This document shows positions 25,155-56,487 of a stretch of DNA of 64,000 nucleotides, in pieces. A program made the position numbers and the translations under genes. Each line of letters opens with the position of its first letter. Position 1 is the stretch's first letter. This DNA is from Octopus sinensis (lineage: Eukaryota): positions 72,974,001 to 73,038,000 of the forward strand of contig NC_043005.1 of the NCBI RefSeq assembly GCF_006345805.1, given 5' to 3'. The notes under the pieces were generated by a model that worked only from the letters and a program-made list of their open reading frames with translations, made no database searches and was not told the DNA's origin.

Positions 25155-25182
<28 letters not shown>

Positions 25183-25189
<7 letters not shown>

Positions 25190-28100
25190 CAACAATTGAG
25201 GGTAAAATTAATTAATTAATCAATTTCACCAAGTGTTCAGTATGCAAAGGGACCATTTAAGGCGAATTCAAATTATTACATTATATAAAAGGGCTTAGTA
25301 AAATAAATTACTTTGCCGCATACTGAACTCATTAGAAATTGCAGCTAAAAAAACATTTATAAAACTATTTCTAATACTTAAAGAAAACCTCTCTCATATA
25401 GTGTTTGCTCAATTCAACTCACGAAAGTATGGGGGGTAGAGACATTAAAAAATCAAATGCAAAGGTTATTTGAGAACGTAACGTCAAGATTAGTCAAACT
25501 CGACATTTCTATCATCAGCTCAGAACTCCCTGGTTGATTTGAAAACACTGAAAGTGGGAGCATACCCCTTCGGCCTCTTATGCTTCTTGAAGATCCGCTC
25601 GTAACTAACAGTGCCAACAAACTCAAATATGCAAGCGAAGAATTTTGCTCCCCCTTCCACCAGCGTGGGTTTAAATCATAGTAAAACACTATGCTTTTTT
25701 CGGTAAAATCCGAGGCATTTAAATAGAGAGAGATGAATATAATTTCAACAGTTGAGGGTAAAATTAATTAATTAATCAATTTCACCAAGTGTTCAGTATG
25801 CAAAGGGACATTTAAGGCGAATTCAAATTATACATTATATAAAAGGGCTTAGTAAAAAAATTACTTTGCCGCATACTGAACTCATTAGAAATAGCAGCCA
25901 AAAAAAAAAACATTATAAAACTATTTCTAATACTTAAAGAAAACCTCTCTCATATAGTGTTTGCTCAATTCAACTCACGAAAGTATGGGGGGAGGTAGAC
26001 ATTAGAATAAATCAAATGCAAAGGTTATTTGAGAACGTACGTTTCAAGATTAGTCAAACTCGACATTTCATCATCAGCTCAGAACTCCCTGGTTTGGATT
26101 TGAAAACACTGAAAGTGGGAGCATACCCCTTCGGCCTCTTATCGCTTCTGAAGATCCGCTCGTAACTAACAGTGCCAACAAACTCAATATGCAAGCGAAG
26201 AATTTCTGCTCTCCCCTTTCACCAGCGTGGGTTAAAATCAGTAAACACTATGCTTTTTTCGGTAAAATCCGAGGCATTTAAATAGAGAGAGATGAATTAT
26301 AATTTCAACAATTGAGGGGGTAAAATTAATTAATTAATCAATTTCACCAAGTGTTCAGTATGCAAAGGGACCATTAAGGCGAATTCAAATGATACATTAT
26401 ATAAAAGGGCTTAGTAAAATAAATTACTTTGCCGCATACTGAACTCATTAGAAATAGCAGCTAAAAAAACATTTATAAAACTATTTCTAATACTTAAGAA
26501 AACCTCTCTCATATAGTGTTTGATCAATTCAACTCACGAAAGTAGGGGGGTAGAGACATTAAAAAATCAAATGCAAAGGTTATTTGAGAACGTACGTTTC
26601 AAGATTAGTCAAACTCGACATTTCTATCATCAGCTCAGAACTCCCTGGTTTGGATTTGAAAACACTGAAAGTGGAGCATACCCCTTCGGCCTTTATCGCT
26701 TCTGAAGATCCGCTCGTAACTAACAGTGCCAACAAACTCAAATATGCAAGCGAAGAACTTTCTGCTCTCCCCTTTCCACCAGCGTGGGTTAAAATCAGTA
26801 AACACTATGCTTTTTTCGGTAAAATCCGAGGCATTTAAATAGAGAGAGATGAATTATAATTTCAACAGTTGAGGGTAAAATTAATTAATTAATCAATTTC
26901 ACCAAATGTTCAGTATGCAAAGGGACCATTTAAGGCGAATTCAAATTATTACATTATATAAAAGGGCTTAGTAAAATAAATTATTTGCCGCATACTGAAC
27001 TCATTAGAAATAGCAGCTAAAAAAAACATTTATAAAAATTTCTAATACTTAAAGAAAAAACTCTCTCATATAGTGTTTGCTCAATTCAACTCACGAAAGT
27101 ATGGGGGGTAGAGACATTAAAGAATCAAATGCAAAGGTTATTTGAGAACGTACGTTTCAAGATTAGTCACAACTCGACATTTCTATCATCAGCTCAGAAC
27201 TCCCTGGTTTGGATTTGAAAACACTGAAAGTGGGAGCATACCCCTTCGGCCTCTTATCGCTTCTGAAGATCCGCTCGTAACTAACAGTGCCAACAAACTC
27301 AAATATGCAAGCGAAGAATTCTGCTCTCCCCTTTCCACCAGCGTGGGTTAAAATCAGTAACACTATGCTTTTTTCGGTAAAATCCGAGGCATTTAAATAG
27401 AGAGAGATGAATTATAATTTCAACAATTGAGGGTAAAATAATTAATTAATCAATTTCACCAAGTGTTCAGTATGCAAAGGGACCATATTAAGGCGAATTC
27501 AAATGATTACATTATATTAAAAGGCCTTAGTAAAATAAATTACTTTGCCGCATACTGAACTCATTAGAAATAGCAGCTAAAAAAAACATTTATAAAACTA
27601 TTTCTAATACTTAAGAAAACCTCTCTCATATAGTGTTTGCTCAATTCAACTCACGAAAGTATGGGGGGTAGAGACATTAAAAAATCAAATGCAAAGGTTA
27701 TTTGAGAACGTACGTTTCAAGATTAGTCAAACTCGACATTTCTATCATCAGCTCAGAACTCCCTGGTTTGGATTTGAAAACACTGAAAGTGGGAGCATAC
27801 CCCTTCGGCCTCTTATCGCTTCTGAAGATCCGCTCGTAACTAACAGTGCCAACAAACTCAAATATGCAAGCGAAGAATTTCTGCTCTCCCCTTTCCACCA
27901 GCGTGGGTTAAAATCAGTAAACACTATGCTTTTTTCGGTAAAATCCGAGGCATTTAAATAGAGAGAGATGAATTATAATTTCAACAATTGAGGGTAAAAT
28001 TAATTAATTAATCAATTTCACCAAGTGTTCAGTATGCAAAGGGACCATTTAAGGCGAATTCAAATTATTAATTATATAAAAGGGCTTAGTAAAATAAATT

Positions 28101-31100
28101 ACTTGCCGCCATACTGAACTCATTAGAAATTGCAGCTAAAAAAACATTTATAAGACTATTTCTAATACTTAAAGAAAAACTCTCTCATATAGTGTTTGCT
28201 CAATTCAACTCACGAAAGTATGGGGGGTAGAGACATTAAAAAATCAAATGCAAAGGTTATTGAGAACGTACGTTTCAAGATAGTCAAACTCGACATTTCT
28301 ATCACCAGCTCAGAACTCCCTGGTTTGGATTTGAAAACACTGAAAGTGGGAGCATACCCCTTCGGCCTCTTATCGCTTCTGAAGATCCGCACGTACTAAC
28401 TGTGCCAACAAACTCAAATATGCAAGCGAAGAATTTCTCTCCCTTTCCACCAGCGTGGGTTAAAATCAGTAAACACTATGCTTTTTTCGGTAAAATCCGA
28501 GGCATTTAAATAGAGAGAGATGAATTATAATTTCAACAATTGGGGGTAAAATTAATTAATTAATCAATTTCACTTGCATATTTGAGTTTGTTGGCACTGT
28601 TAGTTATGAGCGGATCTTCAGAAGCGATAAGAGGCCGAAGGGGTATGCTCCCACTTTCAGTGTTTTCAAATCCAAACCAGGGAGTTCTGAGCTGATGATA
28701 GAAATGTCGAGTTTGACTAATCTTGAAACGTACGTTCTCAAATAACCTTTGCATTTGGTTTTTTAATGTCTCTACCCCCCATACTTTCGTGAGTTGAATT
28801 GAGCAAACACTATATGAGAGAGGTTTTCTTTAAGTATTAGAAATAGTTTTATAAATGTTTTTTTAGCTGCAATTTCTAATGATTTCAGTATGCGGCAAAG
28901 TAATTTATTTTACTAAGCCCTTTTATATAATGTAATAATTTGAATTCGCCTTAAATGGTCCCTTTGCATACTGAACACTTGGTGAAATTGATTAATTAAT
29001 TAATTTTACCCTCAATTGTTGAAATTATAATTCATCTCTCTCTATTTAAATGCCTCGGATGTTACCGAAAAAAGCATAGTGTTTACTGATTTTAACCCAC
29101 GCTGGTGGAAAGGGGAGAGCAGAAATTCTTCGCTTGCATATTTGAGTTTGTTGGCACTGTTAGTTACGAGCGGATCTTCAGAATCGATAAGAGGCCGAAG
29201 GGGTATGCTCCCACTTTCAGTGTTTTCAAATCCAAATCACGGAGTTCTGAGCTGATGATAGAAATGTCGAGTTTGACTAATCTTGAAACGTACGTTCTCA
29301 AATAACCTTTGCATTTGATTTTTAATGTCTCTACCCCCCATACTTTCGTGAGTTGAATTGAGCAAACACTATATGAGAGAGGTTTTCTTTAAGTATTAGA
29401 AATAGTTTTATAAATGTTTTTTTAGCTGCTATTTCTAATGAGTTCAGTATGCGGCAAAGTAATTTATTTTACTAAGCCCTTTTATATAATGTAACAATTT
29501 GAATTCGCCTTAAAGGGTCCCTTTGCATACTGAACACTTGGTGAAATTGATTAATTAATTAATTTTACCCTCAATTGTTGAAATTATAATTCATCTCTCT
29601 CTATTTAAATGCCTCGGATTTTACCGAAAAAAGCATAGTGTTACTGATTTTAACCACGCTGGTGGAAAGGGGAGAGCAGAAATTCTTCGCTTGCATTTTG
29701 AGTTTGTTGGCACTGTTAGTTACGAGCGGATCTTCAGAAGCGATAAGAGGCCGAAGGGGTATGCTCCCACTTTCAGTGTTTTCAAATCCAAACCAGGGAG
29801 TTCTTAGCTGATGATAGAAATGTCGAGTTTGACTAATCTTGAAACGTACGTTCTCAAATAACCTTTGCATTTGATTTTTAATGTCTCTACCCCCCGTACT
29901 TTCGTGAGTTGAATTGAGCAAACACTATATGAGAGAGGTTTTCTTTAAGTATTAGAAATAGTTTTATAAATGTTTTTTTAGCTGCTATTTCTAATGAGTT
30001 CAGTATGCGGCAAAGTATTTATTTTACTAAGCCCTTTTATATAATGTAATAATTTGAATTCGCCTTAAATGATCCCTTTGCATACTGAACACTTGGTGAA
30101 ATTGATTAATTAATTAATTTTACCCTCAATTGTTGAAATTATAATTCATCTCTCTCTATTAAATGCCTCGGATTTTACCGAAAAAAGCATAGTGTTTACT
30201 GATTTTAACCCACGCTGGTGGAAAAGGAGAGAGGGGAGAGCAGAAATTCTTCGCTTGCATATTTGAGTTTGTTGGCACTGTTAGTTACGAGCGGATCTTC
30301 AGAAGCGATAAGAGGCCGAAGGGGATGCTCCCACTTTCAGTGTTTTCAATCCAAATCACGGAGTTCTGAGCTGATGATAGAAATGTCGAGTTTGACTAAT
30401 CTTGAAACGTACGTTCTCAAATAACCTTTGCATTTGATTTTTAATGTCTCTACCCCCCATACTTTCGTGAGTTGAATTGAGCAAACACTATATGAGAGAG
30501 GTTTTCTTTAAGTATTAGAAATAGTTTTATAAATGTTTTTTTAGCTGCTATTTCTAATGAGTTCAGTATGCGGCAAAGTAATTATTTTACTAAGCCCTTT
30601 TATATAATGTAATAATTTGAATTCGCCTTAAATGGTCCTTTTGCATACTGAACACTTGGTGAAATTGATTAATTAATTAATTTTACCCTCAATTGTTGAA
30701 ATTATAATTCATCTCTCTCTATTAAATGCCTCGGATTTTACCGAAAAAAGCATAGTGTTTACTGATTTTAACCCATGCTGGTGGAAAGGGGAGAGCAGAA
30801 ATTCTTCGCTTGCATATTTGAGTTTGTTGGCACTGTTAGTTACGAGCGGATCTTCAGAAGCGATAAGAGGCCGAAGGGGATGCTCCCACTTTCAGTGTTT
30901 TCAAATCCAAACCAGGGAGTTCTGAGCTGATGATAGAAATGTCGAGTTTGACTAATCTTGAAACGTACGTTCTCAAATAACCTTTGCATTTGATTTTTTA
31001 ATGTCTCTACACCCCGTACTTTCGTGAGTTGAATTGAGCAAACACTATATGAGAGAGGTTTTCTTTAAGTATTAGAAATAGTTTTATAAATGTTTTTTTA

Positions 31101-31723
31101 GCTGCTATTTCTAATGAGTTCAGTATGCGGCAAAGTAATTTATTTTACTAAGCCCTTTTATATAATGTAATAATTTGAATTCGCCTTAAATGGTCCCTTT
31201 GCATACTGAACACTTGGTGAAATTGATTAATTAATTAATTTTACCCTCAATTGTTGAAATTATAATTCATCTCTCTCTATTTAAATGCCTCGGATTTTAC
31301 CGAAAAAAGCATAGTGTTTACTGATTTTAACCCACGCTGGTGGAAAGGGGAGAGCAGAAATTCTTCGCTTGCATATTTGAGTTTGTTGGCACTGTTAGTT
31401 ACGAGCGGATCTTCAGAAGCGATAAGAGGCCGAAGGGGTATGCTCCCACTTTCAGTGTTTTCAAATCCAAACCAGGGAGTTCTTAGCTGATGATAGAAAT
31501 GTCGAGTTTGACTAATCTTGAAACGTACGTTCTCAAATAACCTTTGCATTTGATTTTTAATGTCTGTACCCCCCATACTTTCGTGAGTTGAATTGAGCAA
31601 ACACTATATGAGAGAGGTTTTCTTTAAGTATTAGAAATAGTTTTATAAATGTTTTTTTAGCTGCTATTTCTAATGAGTTCAGTATGCGGCAAAGTAATTT
31701 ATTTTACTAAGCCCTTTTATATA

Positions 31724-31724
<1 letters not shown>
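25183..31724. repeat. Tandem array of a ~558-bp unit (~12 units) with orientation switch at ~28573, bounded by (TA)n
   Basis: Unit starts at ~25183, 25739, 26299, 26857, 27414, 27975, 28527; reverse-complement units thereafter. Confidence 0.97.
29226..29318 (+). ncRNA. Type I hammerhead-like motif of the 558-bp unit (representative copy)
   Basis: tgag-CTGATGA-t.aga.aat.gtcga.gt.ttgac.taa.tct.t-GAAA-CGTACG-T-T-ctca; distal stem I tcaaatccaaa/tttgcatttga. Confidence 0.65.
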
Positions 31725-31761
<37 letters not shown>

Positions 31762-32309
31762 TGTATGTGTGTGTGTTGTGGGTGTGTGTGTGGGGGGGGG
31801 TGCGTGCGTGTTTGTGTATGTTTGATTACGTATGTGTATTTGTTTCCATGGATATACACCGGTGTTTTAAGCAGCATTCTTTTATGACAAATGGTAACTC
31901 GGCCATTCGATATTTACAGATCAAAAAATTAATTACAAAACTGAAGTAATCCCATTATCTGCCAGGAATTTAATCTGGCAATTTACGATTTTACCATCGT
32001 CTATCTCATTATTTGGAATAATATTAATTTTTAATATTGGTAACGGAGTCAAACTTTTTTGCGGAGATTATAGTCATACCAAGCCGTCTGACACCGGCCC
32101 GTATTAGGATGCAAGCTTTCAATTTTAAAGTAATCAGAAATTTAAACATTGTATTAATATTTCATGTTAATTAATGATCCAAACACCAGCTTAATAACAG
32201 GGCATTTTTATTATTTGCAAAATTAATTGAAATATTGGTAGAGTATTCCAAAGTAAATGTAGCAAAAAGGTTATCGACTGCAGTACTGGACAATTAGATA
32301 TTTTTCTAC

Positions 32310-32912
32310 CTATTTCTTTACTACCCACAAGGGGCTAAACACAGAGGAGACAAACAAGGACGGACAAACGGATTAAGTCGATTACATCGACTCCAGTGCG
32401 TAACTGGTTCTTATTTAATCGACCCCGAAATAATGAAAGGCAAAGTCGACCTCGGCGGAATTTGAACTCAGAACGTAACGGCAGACGAAATACCTATTTC
32501 TTTACTACCCACAAAGGGCTAAATACAGAGAGGACAAACAAGGACGGACAAACAGATTAAGTCGATAACATCGACTTCAGTGTGTAACTGGTACTTAATT
32601 TATCGACTCCGAAATAATGAAAGGCAAAGTCGACCTCGGCGGAATTTGAACTTAGAACGTAACGGCAGACGGAATACCTATTTCTTTACTACCCACAAGG
32701 GGCTAAACACAGAGAGGACAAACAAGGACAGACAAACGGATTAAGTCGATAACATCGACTTCAGTGTGTAACTGGTACTTAATTTATCGACCCCGAAAAG
32801 ATGAAAGGCAAAGTCGACCTCGGCGGAATTTGAACTCAGAACATAGCGGTAGACGAACTACTGCTAAGCATTTCGCCCGACGTGCTAACGATTCTGCCAG
32901 CTCACCGCCTTT
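32310..32912 (-). mobile_element. SINE family A with internally triplicated body
   Basis: Three ~185-bp modules; TSD-like ttagatatttttctacct. Confidence 0.85.
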
Positions 32913-34346: not shown

Positions 34347-34439
34347 TAATTTGGTATGATCGTTTCGTACTACATCATTTTATTAAATGTTGTAAGTATT
34401 ACAACAGATTTAAGATGCTGAGTACTCATCAGCCAATTA
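34347..34439 (-). ncRNA. Type I hammerhead-like motif with long stem II, in a (TA)n-embedded element (~34220-34887)
   Basis: taattgg-CTGATGA-GTAC...GTAC-GAAA-CGATCA-T-A-ccaaatta. Confidence 0.65.
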
Positions 34440-47088: not shown

Positions 47089-47200
47089 ATTAAAACTGCA
47101 AAAGCATCACAAAAACATTATAACTGACTGATGAACGGGGACGTGAAACTCTGAGTAGCAGTTTGTTCTGATATTTTTGTGATGTTGTTGCAGCTTTAAT
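47089..47200 (+). ncRNA. Type I hammerhead-like motif with long stem I
   Basis: aactga-CTGATGA(47128)-ACG-GGGA-CGT-GAAA-CTCTGAG-T-A-gcagtt; outer arms ctgcaaaagcatcacaaaaa / tttttgtgatgttgttgcag. Confidence 0.7.
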
Positions 47201-48115: not shown

Positions 48116-48929
48116 TACATATATACAAATATACATACATACATATGTATATATAGATATGTCTGATTATATATGTGTGTGTGTGTGTGTTTGTAGAATA
48201 GATTCCTGGATCGAACAATCATGGCCAGGACACTTCTAATTATGAATCAGTTGAATCTGGGCTGCTTCATGCTTAAAGGAAAACAGCAAGTATGAGAATC
48301 TAACAATGCTATTCATCGAAACACAAGCGACTATTGAATCAATAGTTGCTTTCCTACAGTGATTGTGTAGATTTAGATGAGACAAAATTAGTTGTTATCC
48401 ACAAAAGAAGTTATGTCGGGTTTCTTTTAAATTTAAAATAAATTGTTCTTAAACAAAACGAAATTAACTGAAATTGTTCACCGAATAGTGGAATGATCAA
48501 AACCGAAAAGGTATTGTCAATCAAAATGCTAAATTTAATATAGATTTTGAATAGCTATTTTCAATTGTTGGATACTACATTGTCTGTGTTTCGAGTGAAT
48601 AACCAATTTTACGTCTGAACATCGCATAGCTGATTAACTTATGCAAATAGTCATAAGTGTATTCTGACTTTTCGTACACTACCTGATGAGGAATATAGAA
48701 CTCGAAACACTACGTTTTGTAGTAGAAAACTTACTAAGAGGTATTACCACATATACCATGTTTATATCATGTCAGAACTTAACACTTTTCATTTTGTCTT
48801 TTTCTGTATAATAATTCATACCCGAAACGAACAGTTATCGTGCACTTGTGGTGACTAATGACTAAATATGATATATTCTGCGACGTATAATTCGTCACGT
48901 TATTGAGTGTAAATGCATTAACACATACA

Positions 48930-52534: not shown

Positions 52535-52948
52535 GGCGGCGAGCTGGCAGAAACGTTAGCACGCCGGGCGAAATGCTTAGCGGTATTTCATCTGTCGTTA
52601 TGTTCTGAGTTCAAATTCTGCCGAGGTCGACTTTACCCTCCATTCTTTCGAGGTCGATAAATGAAGTACCAGTTACGCACTGGGGTCGATGTAATAGACT
52701 TAATCTGTTTGTCTGTCCTCATTTGTTCTCCCTGTGTTTAGCTCCTTGTAGGTAGTAAAGAAATAGGTATTTCATCTGTCGTTACGTTCTGATTTCAAAT
52801 TCTGCCGAGGTCATCTTTGCCTTTCATCCTTTCGGGGTCGATAAATAAAGTACCAGTTTCGCACTGTGGTCGATGTAATCGACTTAATCCCTTTGTCTGT
52901 CCTTGTTTGTGCCCTCTATGTTTAGCTCCTTGTGGGTAGTAAAGAAAT
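52535..52948 (+). mobile_element. SINE family A, duplicated body
   Basis: TSD tataacaaccagcaataa. Confidence 0.85.
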
Positions 52949-52976
52949 ATATAACAACCAGCAATAAATTATAAAG

Positions 52977-54586: not shown

Positions 54587-56487
54587 CAGATAAGATAAAA
54601 CCACAAGGGTAAGGAATGACCATGCTTCTTTTCTTTTTTAAGAATGCTTGTTGTTCTTGTTCTTGTTTCAACCATGACTGCCTCTGCGTAGTTATGTGTG
54701 GTTTTGTTTACTTTGTAAAACAGTAAGGAGTGAGGGTCACTAGCACATCACCCTCTACCCACATTTTTCTCATCCACATCTTTACCATATGGGGCCCTAA
54801 CAAAATCCGATAATAAGTATAGATGCAAATCTATCTAATTACTTGTCTCCTTCTAAAATTAGGCATAACTTGGCCAATCGATCGATTTACTACACCGTTC
54901 TTCGTCTTGCGTTTACTTGGTAGAGTGTGTTTCTTAACTTTACAACAAGGTCAAGGTGAGCTCTGATTGGCTGTGTGCAAACAAGTTTATTACTGGGGTC
55001 CGGAACTGTCGTCCAAAAAAATTTCGCGGCCGGCTCGCCCCAGCCAACGAAGGTGGAATCAGGTGAAAGCTAAAACGTTGCAAAGCGCATTGTAACCAGC
55101 AATGTACAACAACATCCGATACTTTGATCGATCAAGTGATCACGTGATAATATAATGTAAATAGTTTTCTGTTAGTTTCACTGAACTCGAAACTCATTGA
55201 ATTTTAGCATAACTGGATGAAGTGGTTACAGATGCGGGAATTCTCAATGTAATCCTTAAACAAAGTTAGCAAGACAGTGTGTAACAAAGCTGAGTTGCTG
55301 AATTGCAATTACAGCCACACCTAAGACTGTGTCTTTTCAATTTTACTCATAAAGTATAAGTCGACAGAGAGCTACGGAAAAAAAATCTCTCCTTAAAGCG
55401 GCGAGCGCGGGGCGAAATGCTTAGCAGTATTTCGCCCGTCGCTACGTTCTGAGCTCAAATTCCGCTGAGGTCGACTTTGCCTTTCAAACTTTCGGGGTCG
55501 ATAAATTAAGTACCAGTTACGCACTGGGGTCGATATAATCGACTTAGCACGTTTGTCTGTCCTTGTTTGTCCTCTCTGTGTTTAGCCCCTTGTGGGTAGT
55601 AAAGAAATAGGTATTTCCCCCGTCGCTACGTTCTGCGTTCAAATTCCGCTGAGGTCGACTTTGCCTTTTATCCTTTCGGGGTCGACAAATTAAGTACCAG
55701 TTACGCACTGGGATCGATGTAATCGACTTAATCCGTTTATCTGTCCTTGTTTGTCCCCTCTGTTTAGCCCCTTGTGGCAATAAAGGAAAAAAATATATCC
55801 TCTCTTGTTGCCTCGATGTAGAATCGAATCCCAAACATTATAATTACTAAATAAATTGCTCTTTATGACTACAGCAATTTGTAGAAAACAACAAGAACAT
55901 GCGTGTATAAATATATAAATATTTAATATATATTCATTGAATATAAACAGAATATGGTGTTGTTTCTCCTTCTTTCCTCTTCGTTCTGTTTCTATCACTT
56001 TCATCTTTCCTTTTCATTCTGTTACTATCATTTCCATCTCTCCGCTATCAATAGCCATAATTTAGTAATCTCCGACCACAATATCTGCAGCTATCGAGAA
56101 TAGCAATATGTTATTTATTTATTGCCAAATATGTTTGTTTACTTTGTTCAGTGGATTATAATCGGTAGCTTCATTCATTTGCCAGAAAATGAAAGATAAA
56201 TTAGTTTTAAACACAGTTCAGTGGAAATATTTACTTTTACACGTGCCAATCAACAATATAGTTTAAACATTTACACATTTTATGTATTGGCAGTGATTTT
56301 TGTTCCAAGTCGACAAATATTTCTCTTCGTGATTGCATTTTAAGAGTCATTTTTTTTCTTCCATTGTGTTGCTATTGCTGTAATTGCGATCTTTGTTCTG
56401 CTCTGCTTTCAGGTCAGTCTAGATTGATACGACCTATTATCAAAGGTGTTACAGCCGTGACAATCCATTTATTATTATTATTATTAT

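Follow-up and report, generated by a model that had tools for sequence, protein, structure and literature searches.

How did a repeat without any protein-coding capacity come to lie as two mirror-image arms inside a microsatellite, and what enzyme and which template put it there? This question is raised by an array of hammerhead ribozyme motifs in a 64,000-nt stretch of the Octopus sinensis genome (assembly GCF_006345805.1, contig NC_043005.1, positions 72,974,001 to 73,038,000 of the forward strand), here called the window; coordinates without further label refer to it. We consider it probable that the array is a retrozyme without long terminal repeats (a non-LTR retrozyme) that was mobilised by a Penelope-type enzyme, likely from a self-cut and religated circle. 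A first-pass annotation of the window had already proposed a candidate cephalopod retrozyme, and this part of it is upheld, because young copies free of open reading frames (ORFs) occur genome-wide, the ribozyme covaries across its family and the insertions carry the footprint of Penelope. By every feature testable here except expression, the array belongs with the metazoan non-LTR retrozymes. What was seen directly is the head-to-head layout, the fixed 3' ends at (TA)n, a single haplotype and one end of either kind in each insertion, units that join exactly over the cut site, and scattered 5' ends.

The insertion is built of two arms placed head-to-head in a (TA)n microsatellite, a minus-strand arm of 3.4 kb and a plus-strand arm of 3.2 kb. 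Their 3' ends face outwards and both outer ends join (TA)n directly, a context that hides any target-site duplication. Both arms were delimited by script and from the sequence, and unit positions are counted from the predicted cut site. The left arm (25182..28574, minus strand, 3.39 kb) holds six hammerhead units; its 3' end is the long ('B') end at unit position 293, abutting (TA)n, and its 5' truncation lies at about 246. The right arm (28570..31725, plus strand, 3.16 kb), also with six units, has the short ('A') end at unit position 195, again abutting (TA)n, and is 5'-truncated at about 393. The two truncated ends meet in the head-to-head junction at 28570..28574, where they overlap by 5 bases with one mismatch. 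To the outside follow the left half of the (TA)n target (25157..25185, with a (CT)n run before it) and the right half (31726..31744, then (TG)n). What had been annotated as one 558-bp tandem array therefore does consist of units of about 558 bp, but these form two head-to-head arms and not a single tandem run. This layout with its two fixed ends, absent from the earlier description, is the most informative feature of the locus. A script run on the window returned cut-to-cut units of 555–563 bp and 10 complete monomers, five per arm, for instance the one of 560 nt at 30972..31531 (plus strand). Units within the array differ by about 1% substitutions and by many one-base indels, which are probably in part long-read error. 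An ORF check found no frame of 120 codons within the array, and no LTR-type organisation was found, primer-binding site and polypurine tract not having been scanned separately. Tandem Repeats Finder made no call for the array because its period limit is 500.

All twelve hammerhead cores lie where they had been placed before (minus strand 25512, 26071, 26627, 27186, 27745 and 28302; plus strand 28692, 29252, 29808, 30371, 30927 and 31487). On the left arm, minus strand, they span 25475..25518 (A13/A14 and stem III lost), 26034..26077 (one base absent at the foot of stem II), 26589..26633 (intact), 27147..27192 (intact, with one extra base in loop II), 27707..27751 (intact) and 28265..28308 (A6 changed to G). 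On the right arm, plus strand, the motifs at 28692..28736, 29252..29296, 30371..30415 and 30927..30971 are intact, with cuts predicted after 28736, 29296, 30415 and 30971, respectively, and those at 29808..29852 and 31487..31531 have one stem I mismatch each. Altogether seven of the twelve motifs are fully intact, of which three follow each other on the left arm and four form two pairs on the right; in the others, stem I has a mismatch (two motifs), the foot base of stem II is absent (one) or the core is damaged (two). Of these defects, which may partly be long-read error, the first-pass annotation had recognised the damaged stem III at 25512 and the mutated core at 28302, but had missed the absent base at 26071 and the stem I mismatches at 29808 and 31487.

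The type I core (C3 U4 G5 A6 N7 G8 A9 ... G12 A13 A14, A15.1–U16.1, NUH site) is present in 10 of the 12 motifs, and the predicted cut site is GUU. The sequence holds all the further elements that had been named: TGAG/CTCA as stem I, a U.U mismatch where stem II begins, a palindrome, and a distal stem in which 10 of 11 positions pair. Stem III consists of two pairs closed by a palindromic loop; the palindrome is ACGTACGT, with a predicted self-duplex energy of −9.8 kcal/mol, and two-pair stems III with such loops are said to act as dimers (PMC4209133). No G10.1–C11.1 pair is found in the array motifs; at the base of stem II its place is taken by U.U here and by A.A in several relatives, whereas two other families do have G-C. 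The caveat raised earlier about U.U is thus justified as to the mismatch itself, but it is weaker than feared, having precedent in natural hammerheads and in an active axolotl retrozyme. U.U has been described as the best tolerated mispair at this place (PMC3088659), and the axolotl HHR_Amex2, whose helix II likewise has U.U at its base and whose helix III is two pairs long and closed by a tetraloop, reaches 22% cleavage within an hour as a monomer and does better as a dimer (PMC7229834). For A.A, no precedent was found in the literature passages on hammerheads.

Within the 2.7 billion bases of the genome searched, the exact 45-bp core has 267 matches and its reversed control 0; the motif is therefore not due to chance. 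A loop-variable core pattern, which itself fixes much of the motif outside loop II, gave 915 genome matches, and differences among the first 100 of these were confined to loop II. Across 13 aligned motifs from the array family and its relatives, pairing is 100% in stem II, where two pairs differ in both partners, and 98% in stem I, while stem III is invariant; slid controls give 24–41%. Both double changes in stem II separate two families, so each is counted as roughly one event. Additional families differ in the letters of stem I and keep its pairing, and the core position N7 is U, C or A across families, all other core positions being constant. Distal stem I is 73% paired across relatives without any double change and is therefore not counted as conserved, so that the covariation proposed as a test is found for stem II and, as pairing kept with other letters, for stem I, but not in the form of compensatory change in distal stem I. 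The comparative evidence favours the view that the hammerhead is a structure under selection. The monomer at 30972..31531 is predicted to fold far better than its shuffles (z −5.3 linear, −5.4 circular). The proposed Rfam check was negative: a stretch of 11 kb searched at E≤1, a single motif searched at E≤10 and the window searched at the gathering score all failed to match a hammerhead family.

The unit has at least 202 matches in the genome (39 of 1364 candidates scored), and full units among the matches listed are 94–99% identical. Judged from these copies, the family is dispersed, multi-copy and recently mobile. From 37 regions with the best DNA matches, 42 regions from the first 100 exact cores listed and the window, we assembled a set of 81 insertions at ≥90% identity. 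Fifty of these are inverted, all of them head-to-head, and 31 have a single orientation. When an A end is defined as unit position 188–212 and a B end as 283–296, the two arms of 44 of the 50 inverted insertions end differently, one at A and the other at B; of the remaining six, one is A/A, another is B/B and four have some other end. Having one A and one B per insertion is far from a free 50:50 choice (binomial 3e-11). Single-orientation copies end at B in 18 of 31 cases, at A in 10 and elsewhere in 3, and in six more regions there are four inverted arrays, each of the A/B kind, besides two single ends at B. The last identical base is most often 195 (28 of 57) and 293 (39 of 66), which gives a tail of about 98 bases. 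A clean TA run follows 98 of 123 A or B ends, and the mean TA overlap at the ends is 2.4 and 3.3 bases against 0.9–1.1 at random points, the sites being fixed and hence not independent trials. The 5' ends are spread evenly along the unit, 5 of the 131 falling 10 bases or less from the cut site, and the overlaps at the junctions between arms are mostly 0–7 bases. Both arms exceed one unit in 24 of the 44 A/B insertions; the arm lengths correlate weakly (Spearman 0.30, p 0.046). The insertions thus have the AT-rich or microsatellite target of Penelope-like insertion, and the two fixed unequal ends on head-to-head arms are, as read from these loci, the Penelope 'tail' footprint.

One might ask whether the array is nothing but an ordinary satellite, or an assembly artefact from palindromic long reads, with a hammerhead-like motif by chance. 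The negative Rfam search and the indel noise between units would agree with this, as would the finding that none of the contigs listed from public runs bridges the window junction at 28570–28574. However, the family is dispersed, its fixed unequal ends have different flanks at 50 loci, covariation extends across families, and head-to-head joints of like kind, at other unit points, occur in contigs of two public runs. Such an origin is therefore highly improbable. Contigs of four organisms (runs X1, X5, X15, X16 and X17) match the unit at ≥90%, mostly as subfamily variants; the family is therefore not confined to this assembly.

Penelope copies have been described as inverted and 5'-truncated, with a tail of 30–40 bases on one end and (TA)n targets (PMC3846280, 10.1101/2021.04.23.441226). 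The purified protein of an anole Penelope-like element (PLE) can both cut and extend the two strands, and the tail is defined by two internal sites at which it starts on the RNA (PMC11167929). With endonuclease-bearing PLEs (anole Poseidon, PMC11167929; rotifer elements, PMC3846280; Naiad/Neptune, 10.1101/2021.04.23.441226) the array shares 5'-truncated tandem and inverted arms, a one-sided tail, an AT-rich or (TA)n target and starts shortly downstream of a hammerhead. It differs from them by having neither a reverse transcriptase (RT) nor a GIY-YIG ORF, by a tail of about 98 nt instead of 30–40 and by its many-unit arms. Moreover, the starts in the array overlap TA by 2–4 bases, whereas the anole RNA start site is not homologous to the cut DNA (PMC11167929).

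The octopus genome itself contains autonomous PLE families with frames of 811, 781 and 775 codons that combine RT with GIY-YIG at the C terminus; the 781- and 775-codon frames match the RT and GIY-YIG models. Members of the 811-codon family have open frames with 95–99% protein identity and lie head-to-head in (TA)n. At 30 loci their ends are short in 15 and long in 13, two being unreadable, with a tail of about 34 bases, and each of the 6 readable head-to-head pairs has one short and one long end. This family is an internal control that gives the same footprint as the retrozyme insertions and is about as young. Unlike the array, it has an end sequence dissimilar to the unit, the shorter tail and a minimal hammerhead-like variant only. 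That motif was seen about 150–180 bases past the stop codon in 5 of 6 fetched loci (L230, L238–L243); read from the sequence, its stem I has 7 pairs without a mismatch, U-A stands in place of C3-G8, stem II is two pairs long and stem III is palindromic.

The part of the unit that such an enzyme might recognise can be narrowed down by comparison between families. Unit positions of about 95–293 recur, 67–86% alike, in other hammerhead families of the genome, which have their own ribozymes and the same paired ends. This structured 3' module, common to other retrozyme families, occurs in all units of the array (31063..31257, plus strand, is a single example), and a pattern made for it has 13,650 genome matches, with 0 for the control. 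It is laid out as a hairpin, a long stem enclosing the A end and an AT-rich hairpin just before the B end; in the predicted fold the A site lies in a mostly unpaired loop within the long stem and the B site directly after the last hairpin. Over 15 aligned rows pairing in the four helices is 94%, and both partners have changed in four of the pairs, compared with 35–51% pairing in slid controls, the helix structure having been drawn from the window unit and hence leaning towards it. On the module alignment RNAalifold gave a poor consensus. We infer that the module would be the part bound by the enzyme.

The 3' module and the paired ends are found in at least five other hammerhead families, several of them with A.A and two with G-C at the base of stem II (L149–L177, L180–L207, L136:5490–6690, L025:6630–7140, L142:7300–7880, L150:1790–2490). 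At L192:2579–3111 a module copy ends at A and passes, without a TA run, straight into a fragment of another PLE-type RT frame. An ACCCACG motif, at about unit position 350, comes after the ends here, in related families and also in the 811-codon PLE tail; it could be a promoter element, or chance.

The array had also been termed a Penelope pLTR array, with a genome search for a linked Penelope RT/GIY-YIG ORF as the proposed check. This naming is not supported as it stood: no PLE ORF is joined to the module in 418 module hits at 143 loci, nor to the unit. Neither blastn with the unit, nhmmer with a module profile nor tblastn adjacency revealed a PLE end similar to unit or module among the families sampled, the 811-codon PLE included; the helper search covered the best 150 of 5029 GIY-YIG candidates scored, so that a helper with a matching end may lie outside this sample. 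At L080 and L122, pieces of ORF do lie upstream of the module, but outside the TA-bounded insertions. Without a linked ORF and without similarity to the PLE families sampled, the array is not an autonomous PLE, and its reading as a pLTR is not supported.

If a Penelope-type enzyme made these insertions, which RNA did it copy? Substitution distances amount to 0.9% within an arm, 0.8% between the arms of one insertion and 2.6% between insertions, and where the rank of the partner arm could be tested, in 45 inverted insertions, it fell among the closest tenth in 36. Based on 22 diagnostic sites, 70 insertions fall into 28 haplotypes. A difference at no more than one diagnostic site was found for 148 of 153 unit pairs within insertions, compared with 392 of 6868 between insertions. 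Rare variants are fixed in every covering unit of 10 out of 42 insertions.

Arms of this kind could in principle be built by template jumping between separate cut linear monomers, as jumps between templates are known for non-LTR reverse transcriptases and cut monomers have defined ends. However, of 25 multi-unit insertions a single one is mixed, with two units differing at three or more diagnostic sites, though 28 haplotypes circulate. This haplotype purity largely refutes the idea; the joins across the cut site, furthermore, are exact in 218 of 230 cases and 5' ends do not pile up there, so that jumping between monomers is scarcely credible. A second possibility is that one arm is a fold-back, self-primed copy of the other. 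Self-priming has been proposed for head-to-head PLE structures (PMC3846280), and it would agree with the one haplotype common to both arms and with the short overlaps at the junctions. Yet in 9 of the 44 A/B insertions both arms are too long for either to have been copied from the other, and these length conflicts exclude fold-back as a general route. Mirror-shared variants are few (7 mirror pairs overall versus 4.3 expected) and the pairing of an A with a B end is not explained by fold-back alone, which makes this route very unlikely. Since both monomer jumping and fold-back copying are rejected, what remains is a single continuous RNA primed twice, either a ligated circle or an uncut multimer.

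Between these two, the retrozyme circle seems the likelier template, and we would expect it to be the true one with somewhat better than even confidence. It accounts most simply for the fixed private variants together with the many pure haplotypes, and a circle has been proposed earlier as the template of retrozymes (PMC7229834, PMC4209133). Alternatively, Penelope-type double priming may have taken place on an uncut linear read-through transcript, with the hammerhead slow or silent and the length regained by local duplication. We regard this as unlikely but far from negligible, and several observations which weigh against a self-cut circle, or against the retrozyme interpretation as a whole, belong here. 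Cleavage, transcript and circle are for this array predictions from sequence. Eight of nine Xenopus retrozyme dimers stayed uncleaved in vitro (10.64898/2026.07.22.740005), and in vitro the anole PLE protein worked mainly on RNA that was uncut, hammerhead cleavage not being needed (PMC11167929). The local hammerhead fold, at −5.4 kcal/mol, is 11 kcal/mol above the predicted minimum of −16.4, and the hammerhead is not formed in the predicted fold of the circle; in view of this weak fold and the negative Rfam search, ribozyme activity is not assured. At locus L098 four variants stand at mirror positions of both arms, as expected of a heterogeneous linear multimer or of later gene conversion. An 18-unit arm at L244–L245 shows variants with a period of four units, so that arm length is partly due to later duplication, and variants of period 2 inside the window array likewise suggest later duplication or else assembly noise. 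Homogeneous arrays would, in addition, give homogeneous transcripts even without cleavage. On a more general level, the loci were picked by a full unit or an intact core, which biases the set towards long copies, and among the PLE ends sampled no helper PLE could be identified.

Against an uncut linear template stands that, unless the RNA passes through a monomer bottleneck, a new variant would not be expected to reach fixation in every unit of the two arms, as happened in the 10 insertions mentioned. Each of the 28 haplotypes would need its own homogenised source array, 5'-truncated daughters could only shrink, and the pairs of stem II are kept through double changes. The locus L244–L245 (G000:C1:157522784-157534226) deserves mention in its own right: it is a head-to-head array of the same family, 11.4 kb in length, with very unequal arms of about 18 and 2.8 units, a single haplotype and variants that recur every four units.

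For the retrozyme circle, the following course of events may be envisaged. Read-through transcription of an array would yield an RNA that is cleaved after GUU, likely aided by the pairing of two palindromic stems III, and ligation would then produce a circle of about 558 nt. A borrowed dimeric PLE protein would bind the module and cut both strands of (TA)n, after which one cDNA would be primed from about position 293 and the other from about 195, each with an overlap of 2–4 bases with TA. Both cDNAs would circle the template for up to several laps, stop randomly and become joined by microhomology, and local duplication would later lengthen some of the arms. In a wider and more tentative form, to which we give a little less than even weight, the insertions might be fossils of two-primer rolling-circle reverse transcription by a dimeric Penelope enzyme on one ribozyme-made circle, with the two cDNAs begun about 98 bases from each other, and a cephalopod retrozyme superfamily of more than 13,000 module copies might swap ribozyme variants, many with U.U or A.A at the foot of stem II, behind one shape-recognised module. 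If true, the two-primer rolling circle would cover both the life cycle of retrozymes and the head-to-head-plus-tail form of Penelope, and shape recognition would involve a module without homology to the helper's own ends.

Both matters are stated as open in the literature passages concerned: the mechanism by which retrozymes are mobilised and spread (10.64898/2026.07.22.740005) and the inverted Penelope copies with a one-sided tail (10.1101/2021.04.23.441226, PMC11167929). The family described here gives base-exact predictions, namely that copying starts at about 195 and about 293, once at each of the two per event, that the target is (TA)n and that a defined folded module is involved. To test the model in the tube, an RNA of 558 nt, its circle and an intact PLE protein of the same genome would suffice.

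Retrozyme circles exist in coral, mussel and axolotl (PMC7229834). Metazoan non-LTR retrozymes resemble the array in their tandem non-coding units of a few hundred bases, each with a single type I hammerhead, in a GC content below 50%, in their high copy number and in a structured monomer (PMC7229834, 10.64898/2026.07.22.740005). The array unit is longer than the reported invertebrate retrozyme circles of 170–400 nt (PMC7229834), and cleavage and circles have been demonstrated for metazoan retrozymes, whereas for the octopus array both are predictions. In the passages on retrozymes in these two papers, head-to-head insertions, two fixed ends and (TA)n targeting are not described. No paper on a cephalopod retrozyme, or on this footprint in retrozymes, was found; Repbase, Dfam and supplements were outside this search, so that a listing there is possible. 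The retrozyme class itself is known, and the value of the array is that of a clean test case, not of a new system.

Some further elements were noted in passing. A young PLE family with two overlapping frames of 479 and 781 codons (L092–L095, L104, L096:4900–5300) also ends at (TA)n. Its 3' region holds several repeats, in which a canonical hammerhead was not found by pattern and which bear boxes that we take to be CCAAT-like and cAMP response element (CRE)-like. The window also has 184-bp tandem repeats at 32307–32861, 52582–52949 and 55427–55777, which resemble an octopus short interspersed nuclear element (SINE). Elsewhere in the window lie three lone hammerhead-like motifs unrelated to the array: one at 47128 on the plus strand with a full core and stems I and II, a similar one at 48683 on the same strand, and one at 34432 on the minus strand with a long stem II and a broken stem III. 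These are probably relics of other retrozyme or PLE families.

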